UHGV virus genome: UHGV-2111131
Source of the DNA: a virus
Strand: one strand, 5' to 3'
Length of the DNA: 64,000 nucleotides
Part shown: in pieces, positions 4,181 to 64,000 of the stretch
Layout of the letters: every line of letters begins with the position of its first letter
How positions within the stretch are numbered: position 1 is the first letter of the stretch
Position numbers and translations under genes: made by a program
Notes under the pieces: model-generated
What the model saw: the letters and a program-made list of their open reading frames with translations, nothing else
Database searches by the model: none
Told to the model about the DNA's origin: nothing

Positions 4181-5028
4181 TCAGGCGTCGCTATCCAGCA
4201 ACAAATCATCTGCGCGTGTGCGATCAAACGTAGGTGTTGCTTTCACAATAGTGCCACCAGGCGTTGCGGTGATCGGGGCGCTAATCGACGTAACTCCAGT
4301 AAGCGAAGTTGTATCCGAAGTTTCAAACCAGCAGTACGCTTTTTCGGTATCAGAAATCTCGTTCAAAGTGATCATGTCGGCCTGTTCATTCACAACAACC
4401 GACAAATAGAGCGTAAGCCCATCAAACACTATATGCAGTGGCAGTAGAGGCTTTACGAACTGATTAAACTTTCTGAGAATTTCTTCTGTAATTGCGGACT
4501 GATCTATCGTGCCAGTAATACCCATTGTCCGGGNNNNNNNNNNNNNNNNNNNNNNNNNNNNNNNNNNNNNNNNNNNNAAGTCAGAAACATCTCGCCGAAT
4601 GTGCCGCCGGTAGTTTCCAGTGTGCTTTCTGGTATTAGAACTGTGCCATAGGGATGACGTTCAAGGTCCACCGGTGCATATATCGGATCCCATAAAACAG
4701 AAATACCATTAAATTCGCGGTAAATTGTCTGGTTTATAGGGCGTTCAGTCCCCTTAAAGTGAATCTCATCAAGCCGCTGTTGTAACAACATCGGAACGGA
4801 AGATGAGTTTGAGGTTCTGATAGTAAAGAACTGGCCAAGTTCATTTGTCCTAGTCTCCAGATCCTCCTTGCTCATGGAAAAAATAGACTTCCGGTTGGTA
4901 ATTCGCTCCAACCATGGGTCAACAAAGGTGTCCATCATTGACTGAACCAAATCAGCCAATGATTTATAGAGCAATGACTTTTGCTTAGCTGATGTAAGCC
5001 GATTATTAAACCAGGAACGTTGCATCAC
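4181..5028 (-). CDS. Tail/baseplate protein (position of P1 gene 16), interrupted by an assembly gap
   Basis: ORFs 4504-5028 and 4181-4525 lie on the same strand either side of a 44-nt N-run; most simply one gene whose frame is lost in the gap. Confidence 0.5.
4534..4577. other. Assembly gap (44 N)
   Basis: Run of n characters. Confidence 0.97.
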
Positions 5029-6814: not shown

Positions 6815-9800
6815 TCAACTCTCGCGTAGTCATTCATCAACGGATCATCAATTGACAGTGGTACCGTGCGCATAACGCCCGGCTGAGGCGTGCTGACCTT
6901 TACGACAGTTCCCTGGCCTTTCGCCGAGTCTTTGGTGTGCTCTTCAATCCTGGCAAGCAATGAGGTCATCTGCGCAAACAGCCGCTTCGTTTCACCATCA
7001 AGTGAAACGGTATTATCAGCCAACTGCATTGTCGGCTTGGCACCGGAACCGCCAAGGTCACTAATAACCTGCCCGTCTATCTGCATACGACCGGTTGGTT
7101 GCTGCAAATCGTTGGCGGCAGTCGTCACCTTGGACGTGGAGGCTGGTTCAGGCGCATTATTTTTCCGCATCCCCGGCGAGTTGCGGAGTTTATCGAATAG
7201 TCCATCAATCCCCATTTGTGCGCCGAGTTGGTCAAAGTAACTTGAGTTGCTGGCCACCGGACGCGCCTCTTCAACTGGCATCGGAGTATCAACATACACA
7301 TTGCCAGCTGCTGTTGCGGTCCCCTTCCCTCGTGCACGTTCTTCGAGCGTTCCCTGAACGACTTCCCGACGCATACCCCGGCCATTCATGAATTTGTTGA
7401 CCAGATCGTTAACGCCAACAGCATTGCCGATTTTGTCTACCAGACCGCCTTTCTCAAACGGGCTATCACCAGGGGTAAACGCCAGGCCAGTAGACTGATC
7501 GATAACAGCGTTATCAGGCAGTGGTCCCCTCACTCCATATTGCGCCCCACCCTGTGCTCCTGCTCCAGGTGTATAGATTTCACCACCTAAATAGCGAGCA
7601 CGATGAGTATTGACCTTGATCGCGTACTCACGGTTTTCTTTCGATAAGTCACCTGTGCCTTTTTTCCACTTATTGATAGTGCCAAACCCAGCGTTATATG
7701 CAGTGATGGCCTCGTTTAAGTCTCCATTGGCTTGCTTCAGATACTTGCTCATGAGAAGAGCCGCAGCTTCTGCCGATTTCACAGGATCAAACGATTCACC
7801 TTCAGCTAAGCCAGTCTCTTCACGAGCAATCCCCGTGAACTGAAACATTCCCAGAGCACCGGTTTGGGATTTTGCATACGGATTACCACCAGATTCAGTT
7901 GCAGCAATCGCGTAAAGAGTGCCTTCTGGAAGACCATATTTATTCTCTAGTTCAGCAAAATACGGAGCCAACTTATCGAGATTTGCCTTACCTTCAGATC
8001 CAAGACTTCCGACTTTTACATCCAAGCGGCCATTGTTGTAGGTATCCGCAGCTTTCTGAATGTCATTCCTGGTGCCAGTGGTATTAAGCGACGATGATGA
8101 CGAGCTATTTTGACCAATAGCTTTATCAATTTTCTGCAACGCGCTATTGCCCGTTTCTACGGCATTTGCATTGATAATCTGATTCGCAGTTTCTTTAACT
8201 GTTTTATTGCTATCTTTCGCCGTGTCCAGTGCCGCATTTATCACGCGGGTAACAATATTAGTCTGTTTGGCATCGGATTCAGTTTTAGAATCAGATGTCT
8301 CCTGGTGGCTATTAACCGGAGCTTTTAACTCTGGAGCGATTTCTTTCGCATTAGCCTCGCTATTAACCGGAGCTTTTAACTCTGGAGCGATTTCTTTCGC
8401 ATTAGCCTCGCTATTAACCGGAGCTTTTAACTCTGGAGTGATTTCTTTCGCATTAGCCTCGCCGATCGGATTGGGTATTTTTGATACAATCATTGCCGCA
8501 GGGGTATTTTTAACGGCATCAACCGCTGCATCTAATGCTTTACCAGGTAAATTTTTAACCCCATCCCAAATATTACCAGCCGCCTCTTTAATGTGTTTCC
8601 CCGGGTTCTTAATGAAATCAATTGCACTATCAATTGCATCACTGAAAACCTGTTTCAGGTTATCAACAGTAAAGAAGTCTTTGATGGCATCCAGCTTTTC
8701 AAGCAGCTTATTAGATGTATCGCTAAACCATGCTGAAACAGCATCACCAATCTTTGCTGTGTAATCTTCGAACTTGGTAGAAATGGTGTCGCCAAGGTTA
8801 GAAATATATGTTTCTAAGTTGGTAATCCCACTATCAATGGCCTGGGCAATACTTTCCGTCGAAAATGATTGCAACATATTGCCGATATCCTCAAATCCAA
8901 GTGATTTGAGAACCTCACCAATGGCGCTGCTAATACCAGATACCAGTCCCCCCATATCAAGAACATTGGCTAACGTATAAGCGGCTTTTTGCTGGAATGA
9001 TGGATCTTGTCCTGATTTAAGCCCAAACGCTCGACGTTGCGCTTCTGTATCATTCCAACCGGTTACCGCATCATAAATACCTCCAGCCACTGTGCCGACT
9101 AAGGGAATTGCGCGTAACGCCCCTTTACCAACTGCCTTTAATCCAAGTTTACCTGCTGCCCGGGCAGCCAAATCTCCACCTTCATAGGCGATAGTCTTCT
9201 TGCCACCACCGCGTAGCATTCCTACAAGTTTCTTTGCCCCCAGAGCGCCAAAAGCGAGTGCTCCAGCTTTTTTCAGCATGCCACGCCCCATTAACAACGA
9301 CGCGACGCCACCGGCCCCCTTCCCTAACAGGCTAAATAGTTTGGACAGCAAGCCGCCCTTCTTTTTCCCGGTGTTTTTGGCTATCTGATCAAGGGCGCTG
9401 AGAATCTTGTCATTGCCCTCTTTAATTTCGCTGGTCTGCTCCTGAAGTTCCTGAACTGTCCGTTTTTGGGTGTTAACCTGAACGACATCGGCACTATTTT
9501 GCGATTTACGCCTAAAAAAACCTTTTCTACGGCTGTTATCGTCATTGCCACGAATCACATCGGCAATAGACTTTCTGGCACCATTAAGCGATCCACCAAC
9601 TTCTTTTGATATCCCGCCAAGCTCCTTCCCTGCTGCCCACAATGGACCAGCAACGGCATAACCTAACGCATCAACGGCACGAGTCTCTGAAGGGTTACCT
9701 ATGCCTTCAGCTACTTTTGACAGTTTTTTTAATAAACCTGATTCAGCATTTAGACGCTCATCATCCTCTTTGCGCCTGGCCTTTTCAGCACGTTCAGCAC

Positions 9801-10602
9801 GGGCATCTTCCGCTGCGGCCTTACTCCCTGACTTTCCAATAAAACGACCACGCGCATCGCGTTGGTTTTGGCTTTTTTGCGCACCGCCTTTTTGATCGAA
9901 CATTTCGCGAGCGTGTTCGGCTGCTTCGGTCCGTTGTGCCTTTATATCCTCTGGTATAGCCTTCCTGCGTCGTTTTTTACCCTTTGGTGTAGTTGATTTG
10001 GCCTGCTGTTCCTGTTGAGCAATGCCCTCCTGAACTACACGAGAAACGTCCCCTAAATTAAGCCGTTTCATTGCGTCAACAATAGGGTCTACTGATGGCG
10101 CATTGGCCACAAAGTCTGGCCGGGAATTTTCGATTGTTCGATTTAATGCCGACACACTGCGAGATACTGGGTCAACCGTTGCAACGCGTTCCCCTTTCAA
10201 ATCACGAGCGAGTTTGACCGTTTCTAACCGCTGTGCTTTAACATCCTCTGTTATTGCCTCTCTTCGTCTATTTGGGGGATTGTGCGCTGTTGGTGCAGCC
10301 TGCTGTGCACGGTTAGTGACTTTGTCCTCCCGTATACGAGAAACGTCCCCTAAATTAAGCCGTTTTATTGCGTCAACAATAGGGTCCACTGATGGCGCAT
10401 TGGTCACAAAGTCAGGACGTGAATTTTCGATTGTGCGATTTAATGCCGACACACTGCGAGAGACAGGATCAACAGTTGCAACTCGTTCCCCTTTCAAATC
10501 TTCAACAGCTTCCCGAATACCTGCAAGCTCTTCCAGCTCTTTCGCGCTGGCGGTTTCAACTGTCCTTATAACATCGTCAATATTGGCGTTTTTTCTTTCC
10601 AT
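6811..10602 (-). CDS. sit: Sit-like injection protein with lytic transglycosylase domain (tape-measure-like)
   Basis: 1263 aa; SLT motif LYAIAATESGGNPYAKSQTGALGMFQF; N-terminal duplicated ~57-aa unit (ERVATVDPVSRSVSALNRTIENSRPDFV...) and 3 x 17-aa NAKEIAPELKAPVNSEA repeats. Confidence 0.85.
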   Translation of the reverse strand: MERKNANIDDVIRTVETASAKELEELAGIREAVEDLKGERVATVDPVSRSVSALNRTIENSRPDFVTNAPSVDPIVDAIKRLNLGDVSRIREDKVTNRAQQAAPTAHNPPNRRREAITEDVKAQRLETVKLARDLKGERVATVDPVSRSVSALNRTIENSRPDFVANAPSVDPIVDAMKRLNLGDVSRVVQEGIAQQEQQAKSTTPKGKKRRRKAIPEDIKAQRTEAAEHAREMFDQKGGAQKSQNQRDARGRFIGKSGSKAAAEDARAERAEKARRKEDDERLNAESGLLKKLSKVAEGIGNPSETRAVDALGYAVAGPLWAAGKELGGISKEVGGSLNGARKSIADVIRGNDDNSRRKGFFRRKSQNSADVVQVNTQKRTVQELQEQTSEIKEGNDKILSALDQIAKNTGKKKGGLLSKLFSLLGKGAGGVASLLMGRGMLKKAGALAFGALGAKKLVGMLRGGGKKTIAYEGGDLAARAAGKLGLKAVGKGALRAIPLVGTVAGGIYDAVTGWNDTEAQRRAFGLKSGQDPSFQQKAAYTLANVLDMGGLVSGISSAIGEVLKSLGFEDIGNMLQSFSTESIAQAIDSGITNLETYISNLGDTISTKFEDYTAKIGDAVSAWFSDTSNKLLEKLDAIKDFFTVDNLKQVFSDAIDSAIDFIKNPGKHIKEAAGNIWDGVKNLPGKALDAAVDAVKNTPAAMIVSKIPNPIGEANAKEITPELKAPVNSEANAKEIAPELKAPVNSEANAKEIAPELKAPVNSHQETSDSKTESDAKQTNIVTRVINAALDTAKDSNKTVKETANQIINANAVETGNSALQKIDKAIGQNSSSSSSLNTTGTRNDIQKAADTYNNGRLDVKVGSLGSEGKANLDKLAPYFAELENKYGLPEGTLYAIAATESGGNPYAKSQTGALGMFQFTGIAREETGLAEGESFDPVKSAEAAALLMSKYLKQANGDLNEAITAYNAGFGTINKWKKGTGDLSKENREYAIKVNTHRARYLGGEIYTPGAGAQGGAQYGVRGPLPDNAVIDQSTGLAFTPGDSPFEKGGLVDKIGNAVGVNDLVNKFMNGRGMRREVVQGTLEERARGKGTATAAGNVYVDTPMPVEEARPVASNSSYFDQLGAQMGIDGLFDKLRNSPGMRKNNAPEPASTSKVTTAANDLQQPTGRMQIDGQVISDLGGSGAKPTMQLADNTVSLDGETKRLFAQMTSLLARIEEHTKDSAKGQGTVVKVSTPQPGVMRTVPLSIDDPLMNDYARVD
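8311..8463. repeat. 3 x 51-bp perfect/near-perfect tandem repeat inside sit
   Basis: Unit attaaccggagcttttaactctggagcgatttctttcgcattagcctcgct repeated three times, in frame. Confidence 0.9.
10036..10500. repeat. Two ~170-bp diverged direct repeats ~295 bp apart inside sit
   Basis: Copies at about 10036-10205 and 10331-10500 encode the duplicated N-terminal Sit unit. Confidence 0.8.
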
Positions 10603-12201: not shown

Positions 12202-12792
<591 letters not shown>

Positions 12793-12810
12793 TTAACCGA
12801 TTCTACGAGT

Positions 12811-12824
12811 AGTCATTTGTGACA
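12811..12824. promoter_or_regulatory. Possible late-promoter element AGTCATTTGTGACA upstream of pmgC-like operon
   Basis: Same motif family as 4144, 23673, 44065; an 11-bp inverted repeat lies next to it at 12775-12809. Confidence 0.3.
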
Positions 12825-12826
12825 GG

Positions 12827-13303
12827 TCATTTTGCGCGCTTCAGGCAGCCATCTTCAGGTGCCGCGTTGAAAAGCTCTGCGGCCTTACGTAGCGTAAATG
12901 TTGCGATTTTTTTTCCGTCTACGTATGCATCGAATGTTTTAACTTCCATATCAGGGGTATCTGACCAAAAACCATACCAGTAACTATCACCCACAGAGGA
13001 ACCGATAGAACTGATAGGATATTCATCATCACCAACTTTCAGCGTTATTTGTTCTTTTTTAGCATCAAATGACTCACCGCCAGGTTCTGTTTTCATGAGA
13101 GTGAGTAGTCGTGTTCCTACTTGATTGGGATCCGTATTATTAAATCCAACATCGCACTCAAATGTAAGCGTATAATTATCTTTGCTGGAAACAGCATAAG
13201 AACGAACACCATGAGTCTCGCCGGTTGACCATTTGCTTACATTTGCCATTGACGAAAAAGGAGTAAGCAAAGCAAGAATTAGAAAAAATCGTTTGATGCG
13301 CAT
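12827..13303 (-). CDS. Secreted protein with signal peptide (sim region)
   Basis: ATG at 13303 preceded by AAGGAG; N-terminus MRIKRFFLILALLTPFSSMA; track ORF extends to a TTG at 13330. Confidence 0.5.
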   Translation of the reverse strand: MRIKRFFLILALLTPFSSMANVSKWSTGETHGVRSYAVSSKDNYTLTFECDVGFNNTDPNQVGTRLLTLMKTEPGGESFDAKKEQITLKVGDDEYPISSIGSSVGDSYWYGFWSDTPDMEVKTFDAYVDGKKIATFTLRKAAELFNAAPEDGCLKRAK

Positions 13304-13367
13304 TAATTTATCTCCTTTGGATATTAACAATTATTATCAATATTTTAATTAATTACCCATCATATAT

Positions 13368-14015
13368 TTACCATTCATAGGGTAAATTAAGCGCTTTTAA
13401 ACCTTGCTGGAAGGTATTAAGTGAGCCGTTCTTTTGTTGTTCCATTTTTTCGCGTGCCGCTTTCTCATACTGCTCCATCCGTTGGTTATACTCTTGCAAT
13501 TCTTCTGGAGAGAGGTTTCCCATTGGGGAGTTTGTACCCGGCCCCCTGGCCCGCTCTTCAAGCGTACCCTGAACGTTTTGATGGCGCATTCCTGGGGCAT
13601 TTCTGATTGAGTCAATGCCATTTCTTCCAACATCTTCTTTATTAACGGCATTGCTCGCCACCAGCACCCCCCAGCTAGGGATAGCAAAATCAGGAGCGGT
13701 TTCGCATGCCTTTACCATATAATCGAAAGAGCTTCGATTGATCTCGTTTGCGTCGGGATTTAATAGGCGAGAATATTGATATTTAGCATTTTCGTTGGTT
13801 GCGACTTTATACAGTTCTTGCTGCACCATCGCTTCAGAAAGTTTAAGGCGTTTCATATCTGACAGTAACTTCTTGCGCATGGATTCGTCTTGACTGACAG
13901 CAAAGCCGTAAACGTGCCCAAGGTATTTCGTATAATCGGTACAAATCTCCTTTACGCTTGATGCTGCATTAACAGTCCCAGCCATAAATAATAACGGTAG
14001 TAATAGTTTTCTCAT
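13368..14015 (-). CDS. SimC-like secreted protein (candidate superinfection exclusion)
   Basis: Second ATG (14015) has GGTGAGG RBS; signal peptide MRKLLLPLLFMAGTVNA; C-terminal motif GMRHQNVQGTLEERARGPGT also present in Sit. Confidence 0.5.
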   Translation of the reverse strand: MRKLLLPLLFMAGTVNAASSVKEICTDYTKYLGHVYGFAVSQDESMRKKLLSDMKRLKLSEAMVQQELYKVATNENAKYQYSRLLNPDANEINRSSFDYMVKACETAPDFAIPSWGVLVASNAVNKEDVGRNGIDSIRNAPGMRHQNVQGTLEERARGPGTNSPMGNLSPEELQEYNQRMEQYEKAAREKMEQQKNGSLNTFQQGLKALNLPYEW

Positions 14016-14111
14016 TATAACCTCACCTGCCTTATAACTCATTTAGGGTACATATTTTCGCCTTTAAAAAAAAGAGGTTATTAGATCCAATTGTGTATTT
14101 ATTAAGCATGC

Positions 14112-14128
14112 AATGCTCTAATAAATTT
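14112..14128 (+). promoter_or_regulatory. C1 repressor operator (AATGCTCTAATAAATTT) at the immI promoter
   Basis: 16/17 match to P1 C1 operator consensus ATTGCTCTAATAAATTT. Confidence 0.6.
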
Positions 14129-14299
14129 GTATTTTTAAGTCGCGAATGCTATCTTTTCGCATCATATTGACCTTTTAATCGTTCAGGCTTATAGTTCCGC
14201 CGTCGTAGCAAATTCTGCGACCGGGTTTAGCAGCCTGAATGATTGTGCGGACAGCCGCAGATATCCGATATTGCGGTATTTTTGTGTCCGTAAAACCGC

Positions 14300-14372
14300 G
14301 TTACGCCCAAATTATGGTGGGGCGTGATGGGGAGGCTTCGGCCTGCTGGTTTCACAATCGCCAGTCTGCTAA
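14300..14372 (+). ncRNA. c4: c4-like antisense RNA of immI (approximate bounds)
   Basis: TCACAATC (14352-14359) complements GATTGTGA overlapping the icd RBS (14425-14432); CGTGATGGGG (14323-14332) complements CCCCGTCACG (14373-14382) with one G-U. Confidence 0.4.
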
Positions 14373-14442
14373 CCCCGTCACGTCCTGCCACCTGTTTAGC
14401 AGCGGGTAGCAGGTTGTTAAACCTGATTGTGAGGCCGTAACT

Positions 14443-14664
14443 ATGGTTAATGCCAATCCTTGCGCACGCCCAGAATTCATCTGGCGTTTCTATTCCTGTA
14501 AAAAACACCACTATCACTTCGTTATCGCAGCAACTGAAGACGAAGCACGCTCTCAATTGCCTGATGGTCCCTGCATTTTTACTGCCCGTTTTTCTACTAA
14601 CTCGCGCAATTCACTTAGTTACTGGAACCTCCCCTTCTCTGCTGACGTTCAGGGGGTTTTATGA
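14443..14664 (+). CDS. icd: Icd-like small protein (cell division interference), coupled to ant
   Basis: 73-aa ORF whose stop overlaps the ant start (ATGA). Confidence 0.65.
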   Translation: MVNANPCARPEFIWRFYSCKKHHYHFVIAATEDEARSQLPDGPCIFTARFSTNSRNSLSYWNLPFSADVQGVL

Positions 14665-15704
14665 AAAAACCTCTCGTCACCCGTAATGAAATAGCCGAAG
14701 CGATCGCCCTGCATACTGCCTGTATGCCGACACGGGAGATCCCCGGCGCAATTGCCAACTATTTCATGATAACCAGGCGTTTTTATACCCGAACAGATAA
14801 GGCTGTGATCAACAGGCTACTGATAGCCGAGATCAGGGATTATTTGATTGAACAAGGACGTCTACGTTACGCAACGGTGGCAGCAGAAATGAGAAAGGAG
14901 GCACATAGAATGACCAGTAATAATTTGAATGTTAAAAAACCAGCACCTGTTGCTTCAGCAACGTCAGCACCAGCCGTGAATGTCATCCCCACCACCGGAG
15001 ACACAATCGACAGCCTGACACTGTTAAAGATGGTCAATGAAGCGCGTAAGTTATGTGGGGAACCAGAGGTTCGGAACAACAAATTCATCGAAAAAATACT
15101 CGACGAATTAGAAGGTGAGGACGGTTACACAAAAAGTGCAACCGTGCCGCCAGGTGGCGGTACGCCTATGGTTGTCATAACCATGACCTACAAACAAGCC
15201 CTGCGAGTCGCCGCGCGCGAATCGAAAGCGGTCCGCCGTTCGCTGATCGACAAACTGGAAGAATTGCAGCAGGCAAACTCACCTACCCCATCGATCCCCC
15301 AAACATTACCAGAAGCTCTACGCCTGGCTGCCGAGTTGGCAGAACAGAAAATGCAGTTGGAACAACAGCTGGTGGCCGCAGCCCCTAAAGTCGATTTTGC
15401 CGACCGGGTATCAGCGGCTAATGGAATCCTGATCGGGAACTTTGCAAAGGTCGTTGGACTTAAGCAAAACGCCCTTTTCTCATGGTTGCGCCAGAACGGC
15501 ATTCTCATGGCTTTTGGTGCGCGCAAAAACGTACCGCGCCAGCAGTACATCAACGCCGGATATTTCACGGTGAAAGAAGTGGTGCTGGATGATGAAAATG
15601 GCTACCAGATACGGCTGACGCCCCAATTAACGGGTAAAGGCCAGCAGTGGTTAACTCGCAAGCTACTTGATGCTGGTTTGTTAAAACCAGTAGCAATAGG
15701 TTAA
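14661..15704 (+). CDS. ant: Antirepressor Ant
   Basis: 347 aa; C-terminal ~140 aa (IPQTLPEALRLAAELAEQK...GKGQQWLTRKLLDAGLL) shared with KilA downstream. Confidence 0.8.
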   Translation: MKKPLVTRNEIAEAIALHTACMPTREIPGAIANYFMITRRFYTRTDKAVINRLLIAEIRDYLIEQGRLRYATVAAEMRKEAHRMTSNNLNVKKPAPVASATSAPAVNVIPTTGDTIDSLTLLKMVNEARKLCGEPEVRNNKFIEKILDELEGEDGYTKSATVPPGGGTPMVVITMTYKQALRVAARESKAVRRSLIDKLEELQQANSPTPSIPQTLPEALRLAAELAEQKMQLEQQLVAAAPKVDFADRVSAANGILIGNFAKVVGLKQNALFSWLRQNGILMAFGARKNVPRQQYINAGYFTVKEVVLDDENGYQIRLTPQLTGKGQQWLTRKLLDAGLLKPVAIG

Positions 15705-15781: not shown

Positions 15782-15798
15782 TTTGCTCTAATAAATTT
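15782..15798 (+). promoter_or_regulatory. C1 operator (TTTGCTCTAATAAATTT) upstream of kilA-repL
   Basis: 16/17 consensus match, 70 nt upstream of kilA. Confidence 0.6.
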
Positions 15799-60640: not shown

Positions 60641-61834
60641 GTGACCTGGGACGATCACAAAAAGAATTTTGCTCGCCTGGCGCGAGATGGTGGTTACACC
60701 ATCGCACAGTATGCCGCCGAGTTTAATCTTAACCCTAATACCGCACGTCGTTATCTCCGTGCCTTCAAAGAAGACACCAGGACTGCGGACAGCCGCAAGC
60801 CAAATAAGCCAGTCAGGAAGCCACTAAAAAGCATGATCATTGATCACTCTAATGATCAACATGCAGGTGATCATATTGCGGCTGAAATAGCGGAAAAACA
60901 GAGAGTTAATGCCGTTGTCAGTGCCGCAGTCGAGAATGCGAAGCGCCAAAATAAGCGCATAAATGATCGTTCAGATGATCATGACGTGATCACCCGCGCC
61001 CACCGGACCTTACGTGATCGCCTGGAACGCGACACCCTGGATGATGATGGTGAACGCTTTGAATTCGAAGCTGGCGATTACCTGATAGATAACGTTGAAG
61101 CGCGGAAGGCCGCGCGCGCTATGTTGCGTCGGTCCGGGGCCGATGTTCTGGAAACCACTCTTCTTGAAAAGTCTCTTTCTCATCTCCTTATGCTGGAGAA
61201 CGCCAGGGATACGTGTATTCGCCTGGTGCAGGAAATGCGCGATCAGCAAAAGGACGATGATGAAGGTACTCCGCCTGAATACCGTATCGCGAGCATGCTA
61301 AACAGCTGTTCCGCGCAGATAAGCAGCCTGATCAACACCATTTACAGCATCCGGAATAACTATCGAAAAGAAAGCCGGGAGGCGGAAAAGCACGCTTTGT
61401 CTATGGGGCAAGCTGGCATTGTTAAGCTGGCATACGAACGAAAGCGTGAAAATAACTGGTCAGTGCTGGAAGCAGCTGAATTCATCGAGGCGCATGGCGG
61501 GAAAGTGCCGCCCCTGATGCTGGAGCAAATCAAAGCCGATCTGCGTGCTCCGAAGACCAATACCGATGATGAGGAAAGGCAAACAGCCGTCGGTGGCCCT
61601 TCTCTTGAAGATCTGGACAAAGTTGCGCGAGAACGGGCCGCCAACCGCCGCGCCGATGCCGCATTGTGGATTGAGCAGCGTAGGGAAGAAATCGCCGATA
61701 TCGTTGATACAGGCGGTTATGGAGATGTTGATACTGAAGGTGTATCAAACGACCCATGGCTGGAACAAGACCTGGACGAAGACGAGGAGGAAGACGAAGA
61801 AGTTACCCGCAAGCTATACGGGGATGATGATTAA
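60641..61834 (+). CDS. pacA: Terminase small subunit PacA
   Basis: 397 aa (P1 PacA length); pac site lies inside the gene. Confidence 0.85.
60832..60995. other. pac packaging site: 4 + 3 TGATCA/GATC hexamers
   Basis: GATC clusters at about 60834-60873 and 60963-60992 flanking an ~90-bp spacer. Confidence 0.65.
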
Positions 61835-63320
61835 TGGCCAGAAGTTGCGTAACGGATCCACGTTGGCGCGAGCTGGTGGCGCTATATCGTTATGACTGGA
61901 TTGCTGCCGCTGATGTTTTGTTCGGCAAAACACCTACCTGGCAGCAGGATCTGATTATTGAGTCTGTGCAGGAACAGGGTAGCAAGACATCTGTTTCGTC
62001 TGGTCACGGTACCGGGAAATCAGACATGACTTCTATCATGATCATGTTGTTCATAATCATGTATCCCGGTGCCCGCGCCATTATCGTTGCGAACAAAATT
62101 CAGCAGGTAATGACCGGTATATTCAAGTACATCAAGATAAACTGGGCTACTGCCACCAGCCGTTTCCCATGGCTTGCTGATTATTTTGTTCTGACAGAAA
62201 CCGCTTTCTATGAGGTTACTGGTAAAGGTGTATGGACTGTAGTACCGAAGGGCTTTCGTCTGGGAAGTGAAGAAGCTCTCGCCGGTGAACACGCAGATCA
62301 TCTTCTGTATATTATCGATGAAGCCTCCGGTGTCAGTGATAGAGCTTTCGGTATCATCACCGGTGCTCTTACCGGACAGGATAACCGCATCTTATTACTG
62401 TCACAGCCTACACGCCCAAGCGGCTATTTCTACGATACACACCATAAACTGGCCAAGCGTCCTGGTAACCCTGATGGCGTTTATACGGCGATCACGCTTA
62501 ACAGTGAGGAATCACCGCTGGTAACGCCAGCATTTATCAAAATGAAGCTGGCGGAGTACGGCGGGCGNNNNNNNNNNCTATGTACATGATTAAGGTACGC
62601 GGCCTATTCCCTAAATCACAGGATGGCTTCCTTCTTGGACGTGATGAGGTTGAACGTGCAACGCGGCGGAAAGTCAAGATTGCCAAAGGATGGGGCTGGC
62701 TTGCATGTGTGGACGTTGCTGGTGGTACGGGACGGGATAAGTCCGTTATCAATATCATGATGGTGTCCGGCCAGCGAAATAAACGCCGTGTAATCAACTA
62801 TCGAATGCTGGAATACACAGACGTTACAGAAACGCAGCTTGCCGCCAAAATTTTCGCAGAATGCAATCCTGAGCGATTCCCAAATATCACCATAGCGATA
62901 GACGGCGATGGCTTGGGTAAAGCAACGGCGGATCTGATGTACGAGTATTATGGTATTACCGTACAGCGTATACGCTGGGGTAAAAAGATGCATAGCCGTG
63001 AAGATAAGAGCCTGTACTTTGATAAACGTGCTTATGCCAACGTTCAAGCCGCAGAGGCCGTAAAATCTGGTCGTATGAGACTGGATAAGGGTAATGAAAC
63101 TATTGAGGAAGCGTCGAAAATCCCTGTAGGGATTAACTCCGCAGGTCAATGGAAGGTGATGAGTAAGGAGGATATGAAGAAAAAACTCAACCTGCACTCA
63201 CCAGACCATTGGGATACATATTGTTTCGCTATGCTGGCGGATTATGTTCCCCAGGATGAAGTGCTTAGCGTCGAAGACGAAGCGCAGGTTGATGAAGCTC
63301 TGGCATGGCTTAATGAATAA
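61834..63320 (+). CDS. pacB: Terminase large subunit PacB (interrupted by 10-N gap)
   Basis: Two collinear ORFs joined across the N-run; total about 495 aa. Confidence 0.8.
62568..62577. other. Assembly gap (10 N)
   Basis: Run of n characters. Confidence 0.97.
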
Positions 63321-63344
63321 CTCATTGACCATGCCGGATAGAAA

Positions 63345-64000
63345 CTATTGCGCGCTTTCGGGGTTGTCGTTTACTGGCTGCCCCTTCTTAGTTTTACGGC
63401 TGCGCGTAACTGATGCGGCTGATTTGACCTTTTTCTCTTCGCGAGTGATGGCAATTTGTTTTTTTACATTTTCAATATCTGCCAGGCGATATATTTTTGC
63501 CTGCGGCCAGCGGTCGCAGATGATCGGTTCTATAGAGTCATAAAGGCTAAATTTTGCTTTTTCGAATTCACCGTTGATGATAATTCCATCACGGAGAGTT
63601 TCATCGCAGATAAACACGCCACACAGTGGCACATGGTAACTAACTGATTTACCATCATTGTAGTTAGGGCTACTGGAAATGTAGTGGACGCGCAGCATTG
63701 TTTCGCTAAAGCCGTGTACACGCATACGGAATTTTTCATCCTCCGGGTACTGCTTCATTAGCTCTTTTGTTGCTTCCAGGTTCTCTATGTATTTCGCACT
63801 GTGCTCATTGATCCCCGCGCTTTTCTGGATGCGAATGTCCTTATCAATCAGATGAATAATGCGGCCAGCGGTCATGTTGACGCTGTTCACAGCTTCTGTC
63901 TGATAAGTTGTAACCTTACGCACACCGCGAAGGATGTTAGGCACTGGATATAAAATAGTCTTTGGGATATTGAGGTCTGGGTACTGTTCCAGTTCCCGCG
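63345..64000 (-). CDS. c1: C1 repressor of lysis, C-terminal ~218 codons; start beyond window end
   Basis: Frame open to window end; PNILRGVRKVTTYQTEAVNSVNMTAGRIIHLIDKD...; cognate operators present throughout the window. Confidence 0.9.
   Translation of the reverse strand, partial: RELEQYPDLNIPKTILYPVPNILRGVRKVTTYQTEAVNSVNMTAGRIIHLIDKDIRIQKSAGINEHSAKYIENLEATKELMKQYPEDEKFRMRVHGFSETMLRVHYISSSPNYNDGKSVSYHVPLCGVFICDETLRDGIIINGEFEKAKFSLYDSIEPIICDRWPQAKIYRLADIENVKKQIAITREEKKVKSAASVTRSRKTKKGQPVNDNPESAQ

Follow-up and report, generated by a model that had tools for sequence, protein, structure and literature searches.

The exported protein SimC (Sim) of phage P1 is said, in work from 1982, 1989 and 1990 associated with the names of Devlin, of Kliem and Dreiseikelmann, and of Maillou and Dreiseikelmann, to be processed and to act in the periplasm as a superinfection-exclusion protein; Sim reportedly blocks P1 after adsorption. 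Spackle (Sp) of phage T4 is a periplasmic inhibitor of the tail-associated lysozyme gp5, and for superinfection exclusion by Ltp of phage TP-J34 and by gp15 of phage HK97 the genetic target is the tape-measure protein. For Ltp and HK97 gp15, we know of no reported sequence mimicry of a tape-measure protein. The TolB and TonB boxes of colicins are short disordered motifs which compete with, or imitate, the natural ligand of a periplasmic partner. Here, we describe a gene of the P1-like phage-plasmid UHGV-2111131 (one stretch of 64,000 nucleotides, referred to as the window), the product of which belongs to the SimA family, carries a predicted signal peptide, and shares a segment of around 35 amino acids (aa) with Sit, the tape-measure/injection transglycosylase of the same element.

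An earlier note on this DNA had described a secreted protein of 215 aa that shares a motif of about 20 aa with Sit. The positions and residues given for the motif were correct, and pairwise comparison of the two proteins is significant (BLASTP, 23 identities over 47 positions, E=9e-9); the similarity reaches beyond the motif, the length of which had been underestimated, around 35 aa being shared. The aligned parts are aa 131-177 of the SimA protein (in the numbering of a 224-aa form, see below) and aa 1060-1102 of Sit, and the core of the segment in SimA, NAPGMRHQNVQGTLEERARGPGT, comprises aa 139-161 (window 13533-13601). Among the 215 open reading frames (ORFs) of at least 80 aa found in the six frames of the window, Sit is the sole match of SimA apart from itself (BLASTP, E=2.2e-7). 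The profile of the Sit family, phrog_2533, matches SimA aa 129-171 with E=8e-8 among 38,880 families, and a tblastn search of a 2.3-Gb phage collection with SimA finds sit genes at E values around 7e-3. The second partial copy in Sit that had been reported, SPGMRKNN, is present as well, as LRNSPGMRKNN from aa 1139 onward, and gives a second, weaker BLASTP match from Sit aa 1136. Proteins of the Sit family are recognized by a long helical tape-measure region, an SLT domain, and a conserved C-terminal end (...PLSIDDPLMNDYARVD). In the SimA protein, only aa 129-171 match the family profile, at positions 929-972 of 1130, and the SLT domain finds no match, such that the protein has the motif in common with Sit but is no member of the Sit family.

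Cognate SimA and Sit proteins were compared in E. coli (Escherichia coli), in Cronobacter phage JK004, and in contigs assigned to Salmonella, Klebsiella, and metagenome samples. The consensus of the shared segment reads K/E-F-x-N-x-x-G-M-R-x-x-x-V-Q/E-G-T-L-x-E-R-A-R/Y-G-x-G-T... and extends in several lineages to G-T-x-S-x-M-G-N-[VL]-S. All compared Sit proteins exhibit K-F-[ML]-[NS]-x-x-G-M-R-x-x-x-V-Q-G-T-L-x-[ED]-R-A-[RY]-G-x-G-[TV]..., usually followed by T-x-M-G-N-V, and no Sit examined is without the motif; this holds also for P1 and P7, neither of which has a full-length SimA. The SimA family has a nearly invariant first motif half, N-x-x-G-M-R-[HQ]-Q, and a second half of the form V-[QE]-G-[TS]-[LM]-x-x-R-A-[RY]-G-x-G. 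This second half is kept in the window type, in a 163-aa class of E. coli alleles (see below), in the members P0011, P0018, P0019, P0020, and P0028, and in the distant member P0043/L090. Nine divergent Sit proteins are invariant within the motif at K, F, GMR, VQGTL, RA, G, and G, and the residues common to SimA and Sit (GMR, V-x-G-x-L, RA, G-x-G) are among these invariant ones. The SimA protein P0028 and a Klebsiella-type Sit are identical at 27 of 35 positions. Within SimA, the motif is the best-conserved part: in the most distant members it is identical at 17 of 23 positions (74%), compared to 45 of 121 (37%) in the N-terminal domain, and it is retained where the module downstream of it has been exchanged.

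The distant member (L090:10001-10531, IMGVR_UViG_2871745582_000001; P0043) shows 37% identity in the helical domain and keeps the motif as NAPGMRHQAVKGSMAERARGDGT. Its neighbourhood differs from that of the other members, with a possible PAAR-like ORF upstream, as read from the sequence, and large ORFs resembling a DNA methyltransferase and a DnaB-type helicase downstream. A corresponding Sit was not found within the 20-kb locus; a metagenome scan remained empty, and a scan of viral contigs for Sit was saturated by E. coli elements. Concerning other carriers of the motif, a query with the C-terminal part of Sit returned only Sit fragments, and a 41-aa motif profile, which has a poor sensitivity, found only three SimA fragments among 14 candidates. 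Comparison of P1 SimB and SimC, P7 Upf50.0 and Upf50.5, YfjT-like proteins, and others with all window ORFs (BLASTP) revealed no credible copy of a virion protein; a match of SimC to an out-of-frame ORF at 63178-63540 (E=0.001) was judged to be due to chance.

At the DNA level, the two motif copies of the window are identical at 56 of 90 positions, i.e., at 13 of 30 third positions and at 21-22 of 30 first and second positions. In four lineages, the third base is common to only 5-8 of the 17-20 codons that encode identical residues. Since third positions are scrambled while the residues are kept, the similarity is old and conserved at the level of the peptide, and the motif is under selection as a peptide in both SimA and Sit. 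By the same comparison of synonymous sites, recent gene conversion is ruled out, apart from a short run in the Salmonella lineage L006 (L006:10001-10669 compared with L006:13897-17151), in which the motif copies match at 19 of 21 nucleotides (AACTCGCGA.GCATGCGGCA.). This run is the only hint of a local gene conversion between simA and sit.

The sit gene of the window is 96-98% identical at the DNA level to those of P1 and P7. Sit is the tape-measure protein (PMC9024508) and is unresolved in the cryo-electron microscopy maps of P1 (PMC12810830). Across ten divergent Sit proteins, aa 1041-1100 form a conserved island (identity 0.66-0.80) with variable flanks (0.1-0.48), and this island follows the SLT domain and precedes the C-terminal end. 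The second motif copy lies within an insertion of around 53 aa (aa ~1105-1150, window 7153-7290; GIDGLFDKLRNSPGMRKNN), which is found only in the E. coli-type Sit of the window among nine aligned proteins and is absent from the other eight (Cronobacter, Salmonella, Klebsiella, others). The first half of the SimA motif (GIDSIRNAPGMR, or RNSPGMR in some alleles) is closer to this second copy than to the first. Furthermore, Sit has a length of 1263 aa in the window versus 1140 aa in P1; the gene contains a tandem repeat of three 51-bp units (EANAKEIAPELKAPVNS x3) at window 8308-8462, and near the N-terminus of the protein some 50 aa are directly duplicated (aa ~36-88 and 134-186, window ~10045-10497). 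Because Sit is the tape measure, such repeats and duplications could alter the length of the tail.

The designation 'SimC-like', which had been given to the SimA protein before, had to be abandoned. In BLASTP against P1 SimC the best E value is 29, i.e., there is no similarity, and the two proteins fall into different PHROGs: SimC belongs to phrog_14355, whereas phrog_3933 matches the window protein over its full length (aa 1-215, E=4e-137). The protein is a full-length member of the SimA family, exhibiting the signal peptide, the helical domain with CTDY[TV][KR]YLGH...LSEAMV...IPSW, and homology to P1 SimA; its aa 1-48 are 85% identical to the simA region of P1 (tblastn against the phage collection). 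Up to residue 45, P1 SimA (52 aa) and the window protein have the same sequence; beyond it, the P1 protein diverges and then ends (comparison of window 13880-14042 and P1 47912-48070, L001:2905-3063). P1 simA is therefore a truncated 5' remnant of the gene found in the window, the rest of the ancestral simA and the YfjT-like gene having been replaced by a simB-simC cassette. An alignment with 18 members of the family, some of which are named 'simA domain protein' at NCBI, contains 35 invariant columns.

The homologues form 28 clusters, all of them on enterobacterial contigs of around 90 kb, and when 1.84 billion representative proteins were searched exhaustively with a SimA profile, 11 matched, all belonging to the SimA family. 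The gene is matched by 267 plasmids in PLSDB (84 at full length), and 251 of 5,426 complete E. coli genomes carry the gene or a remnant of it (81 at full length), 248 of the 252 matching places being situated on plasmids. In P1-like phage-plasmids, it belongs to the accessory genes of the hypervariable sim locus. Although annotated, the family is uncharacterised: text searches of the literature returned no account of a SimA function, of the motif shared by SimA and Sit, or of simA as a truncated gene, and the literature searched contains no exclusion data for the family. Whatever its function, the annotation is to be corrected to a modular protein of the SimA family. Kinship to DUF5384 or to the PTP-like phytases was rejected as well. 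P7 Upf50.0 (DUF5384) gives E=0.37 in BLASTP, and PF17358 matches Upf50.0 at E=3e-43 but not the window protein. With 26.6 bits, the PTP-like phytase family (PF14566) falls short of the cutoff of 27, and the match covers only profile positions 46-132 of 158; its C-x5-R loop is absent, both C25 (TDYTKY) and C104 (ETAPDF) lacking an R at +6.

SimA is composed of a signal peptide, a conserved helical domain, the motif-bearing segment, and a variable C-terminal module (Table 1). In the region of the signal peptide, N16, A17, and S19 are invariant across the family, and residues 1-15 have a predicted local distance difference test score (pLDDT) below 50 in the AlphaFold2 (AF2) model. Two cysteines of the helical domain, C25 and C104, are invariant in the family alignment, and the domain is disulfide-capable. 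The motif-bearing segment, with a pLDDT of around 45, is modelled as a low-confidence linker and is probably flexible. In other lineages, the C-terminal module is exchanged for a module with a Cys pair, for 'VAP*', or for 'PIEYSSPTN*' (family alignment and locus survey), and in some the protein stops shortly after the motif. A second class of E. coli alleles ends with '...ERARGPGVAP*' and is 163 aa long from the second ATG (L041:9974-12147 from IMG/VR, with about 20 similar loci; PLSDB H78-H83); here, a recombination breakpoint lies immediately after the Sit-like motif, and downstream come a divergent YfjT-like gene with 28% identity and one additional ORF of 357 aa.

Table 1. Position of the features of the SimA-family gene, of sit, and of their surroundings in the window
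Feature	Position	Strand	Basis and remarks
SimA-family exported protein, coding sequence	13368..14015	-	ORF list; 215 aa from second ATG (14015)
Predicted type I signal peptide, MRKLLLPLLFMAGTVNA / ASS	13965..14015	-	Read from the sequence
Conserved all-helical N-terminal domain, aa 18-135	13611..13964	-	AF2 pLDDT 90-96 over ~aa 20-130
Sit-like linear motif, aa 136-170, SIRNAPGMRHQNVQGTLEERARGPGTNSPMGNLSP; core aa 139-161	13506..13610	-	BLASTP, window-wide BLAST, Sit profile
Variable C-terminal module	13371..13505	-	Long helix here (170-196 in AF2 model)
YfjT-like exported protein, gene immediately downstream	12827..13330	-	ORF list; probable start MRIKRFF at 13303
C1 repressor operator (Oc4/Op51 equivalent)	14112..14128	+	1 mismatch to ATTGCTCTAATAAATTT; divergent control region upstream of SimA-family gene
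C1-operator-like sites	14112-14128, 15782-15798, 30712-30728, 34234-34261, 44097-44113, 49862-49878		Match to ATTGCTCTAATAAATTT with <=2 mismatches
sit, tape-measure/injection transglycosylase, 1263 aa	6811..10602	-	ORF list
SLT lytic transglycosylase domain of Sit, aa 881-990	7633..7962	-	PF01464, E=1.9e-27; ~80 aa upstream of motif
Sit motif copy 1, aa 1070-1104, KFMNGRGMRREVVQGTLEERARGKGTATAAGNVYV	7291..7395	-	Also written as 35-aa segment NGRGMRREVVQGTLEERARGKGT
Sit partial motif copy 2, LRNSPGMRKNN from aa 1139, LRNSPGMRKNNA	7153..7188	-	BLASTP and sequence comparison

Escherichia phage vB_EcoM-Ro157c2YLVW matches all of region 12700-14700 with 97% identity, whereas P1 covers 47% and P7 36% of it. 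The divergence from P1 and P7 is located in the sim locus, between pmgC and the immunity operon c4-icd-ant. In PMC9603915, this locus is counted among the eight regions at which P1-like phage-plasmids are hypervariable. Its cargo consists of simC-simB-simA in P1, of upf50.0/upf50.5 in P7, and of two 'hypothetical' genes in the window and in Ro157c2YLVW. The location between c4-icd-ant and pmgC/LPsit is syntenic with P1, P7, Ro157c2YLVW, and Salmonella, Klebsiella, Cronobacter, and metagenome loci; the window gene occupies the position typical of the SimA family, from which only the distant L090 deviates. The ATG at 14015 is preceded by the Shine-Dalgarno-like GGTGAGG, and a further in-frame ATG at 14042 gives the alternative form of 224 aa (nine additional residues). 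The C1 operator is situated 70-86 bp upstream of the latter ATG in the divergent control region of c4 and simA, where the P1 annotation places Oc4 and a predicted promoter PsimA at the homologous position. Seven C1-operator-like sites exist in the window, versus 0.02 expected by chance.

The YfjT-like protein encoded downstream is matched by phrog_3429 over aa 10-167 and assigned to PF27224 in precomputed annotations. In each of seven lineages inspected, a YfjT gene of PF27224 lies behind the SimA-family gene; in six the two are direct neighbours, whereas one gene of 117 aa lies between them in L005/L006; in Cronobacter phage JK004 (gene_13), the same adjacency is found. The YfjT-like protein could be the partner of SimA or the actual effector. 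Elsewhere in the window, runs of masked bases (N) at ~4540-4590 and ~62570-62585 lead to X in the ORFs 4504-5028 and 61834-62589.

The earlier note had proposed exclusion by mimicry or by competition for a partner of Sit. The premise of this proposal holds, as the motif is real and significant and is subject to selection in SimA as well as in Sit; a matching of SimA to its cognate Sit, by contrast, did not emerge. If the proposal applies, the Sec signal peptide would export SimA to the periplasm, where its linker would display a linear motif of 23-35 residues homologous to the conserved block of Sit. Tail contraction presumably sets Sit free in the periplasm, and SimA in a cell carrying the element would present its motif as a decoy, either occupying a partner to which the Sit motif has to bind while the envelope is penetrated and DNA is delivered, or co-assembling with the incoming Sit as a dominant-negative subunit. 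Superinfecting P1-like phages would be blocked after adsorption, and P1 and P7 would be potential targets, since their Sit proteins carry the motif. That SimA is a periplasmic exclusion protein at all is suggested by its position in the locus and its signal peptide. Consistent with a decoy, the SimA family is found only in P1-like elements, in the locus that holds the superimmunity genes of P1, and in the structure models the motif lies in regions of low pLDDT in both SimA and Sit, as would be expected of a linear binding motif. The most economical assumption is that both peptides would bind the same periplasmic partner. To the proposition that a periplasmic SimA decoy imitating the Sit motif excludes P1-like phages we assign a probability of about 0.4. 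A more far-reaching version is doubtful to us and is held with less confidence: that the element jams the entry of related phages with a motif copied from its own tape-measure protein, as the first exclusion mechanism by tape-measure mimicry, and that Sit ~1070-1100 is the docking site of a partner required to bring P1 DNA across the periplasm and the inner membrane.

Several observations weigh against the decoy. In 11 pairs of SimA and cognate Sit motifs, no significant covariation was seen (permutation p=0.18); the segment of the window SimA is identical to its own Sit at 19 of 35 positions, versus 23 of 35 to the Klebsiella-type Sit of L009. In JK004, L011-L014, and L062, only the first half of the motif (N-x-x-G-M-R-[HQ]-Q) is present, the rest being replaced. 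P1 itself does without a full-length SimA and keeps a stump of 52 aa. In the literature, the documented Sim phenotype of P1 is credited to SimC, which is unrelated to the window protein, and P1 SimC exhibits neither a Sit-like motif nor any similarity to Sit; because the characterised SimC is without similarity to Sit, the phenotype is not transferable to the window protein. To act as a stoichiometric decoy, SimA would have to be abundant, and its expression in the lysogen is putative. Neither Pfam, NCBIfam, nor PHROGs offer anything informative on the function of the N-terminal domain, and Foldseek revealed no significant, informative match for it in the PDB (none with E <2.7). Finally, in an AF2 model of Sit aa 860-1263 the SLT domain reaches a pLDDT of 86-94 and everything after it remains below 50, such that a contact between motif and SLT domain is unreadable from the model.

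Some of these observations would also fit a motif that serves localisation. Both proteins would dock on the same envelope component (peptidoglycan, a periplasmic chaperone or protease, or an inner-membrane protein) without any role in exclusion, and the function of SimA would lie elsewhere, e.g., in lysogenic conversion of the envelope or in a partnership with the YfjT-like protein. The missing match to the cognate Sit, the dispensability of half of the motif in several lineages, and the low model confidence around the motif in both proteins agree with this, and the presence of a YfjT-like exported protein downstream in all lineages examined suggests a periplasmic module of two proteins. It would be surprising, however, for a general envelope-docking peptide to be confined to P1-like elements, as the SimA family is; this restriction agrees better with a role in P1 biology, and the locus is the place where P1-like elements keep cargo related to superinfection. 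We regard this as unlikely, though as the strongest of the alternatives to the decoy.

Somewhat less probable again is a direct action on Sit, in which the partner would be a phage protein and not a host factor. The SimA motif would then copy a segment by which Sit contacts its own SLT domain or neighbouring chains in a Sit trimer, and periplasmic SimA, still an exclusion protein, would inhibit the transglycosylase in the manner of T4 Spackle or poison the assembly of Sit as a dominant-negative subunit. The position of the motif around 80 aa past the SLT domain in a conserved island would suit such a contact, the internal duplication of the first motif half in the E. coli-type Sit fits a self-interacting element, and the conserved folded domain of SimA could be a steric block. 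Against this stand the low confidence (pLDDT <50) of the Sit tail including the motif, from which no contact can be read, and, once more, the lack of covariation with the cognate Sit. An evolutionary relic, i.e., a sit fragment captured by illegitimate recombination into a gene of the sim locus and functionless there, is already disfavoured and very improbable: the locus is indeed a recombination hotspot with several cassette breakpoints, and the L006 run is common to both genes, but synonymous sites are otherwise scrambled with the residues kept, in members whose N-terminal domains are 37% identical the conservation of the motif exceeds that of the remaining protein, and the conservation falls on residues that are invariant in Sit.

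The motif of 23-35 residues shared by Sit and SimA provides a concrete handle for finding the partner of Sit, and with it for the questions of how P1 DNA passes the periplasm and the inner membrane and which role Sit plays after tail contraction; it also suggests a function for the intact form of the vestigial simA of P1. If the decoy exists, it would add a new mechanism to superinfection exclusion and would help to explain the turnover of cassettes at the sim locus. The elements in question are common, as the above occurrence of the SimA-family gene or its remnant in 251 of 5,426 complete E. coli genomes indicates, and P1-like phage-plasmids have been linked to the spread of blaCTX-M-55 (PMC9603915).

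Compared to the described systems, the window gene is closest to P1 simA, the product of which is annotated as 'putative superimmunity accessory function' and belongs to the same family and locus; P1 SimA is a stump without helical domain, Sit-like motif, and C-terminal module, whereas the window gene represents the intact form. P1 SimC shares with the window protein the locus and the export, and a block after adsorption, reported for Sim, is here proposed for SimA; the two have no similarity in sequence, SimC is without the Sit-like motif, and the documented exclusion phenotype is that of SimC only. T4 Sp resembles the proposed SimA as a small exported phage protein directed against a cell-wall-degrading tail component of the superinfecting phage, but it is a folded inhibitor that attaches to the lysozyme domain and copies no segment of its target, and the SimA model is without a match in the PDB. 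Ltp and HK97 gp15 are, as proposed for SimA, prophage-encoded envelope proteins that block DNA entry via the tape-measure protein. Ltp is a lipoprotein and HK97 gp15 an inner-membrane protein, and their link to the tape-measure protein comes from escape genetics, whereas that of SimA is the shared peptide; on the side of SimA, only envelope targeting by its signal peptide and the sequence link to the tape-measure protein are seen here. The TolB and TonB boxes offer a mechanistic analogue for a periplasmic decoy, although they serve entry rather than exclusion and their sequences are unrelated. Beside the known exclusion proteins that target the tape-measure protein and the periplasmic inhibitors of tail enzymes, imitation of a tape-measure motif would be a new variant.

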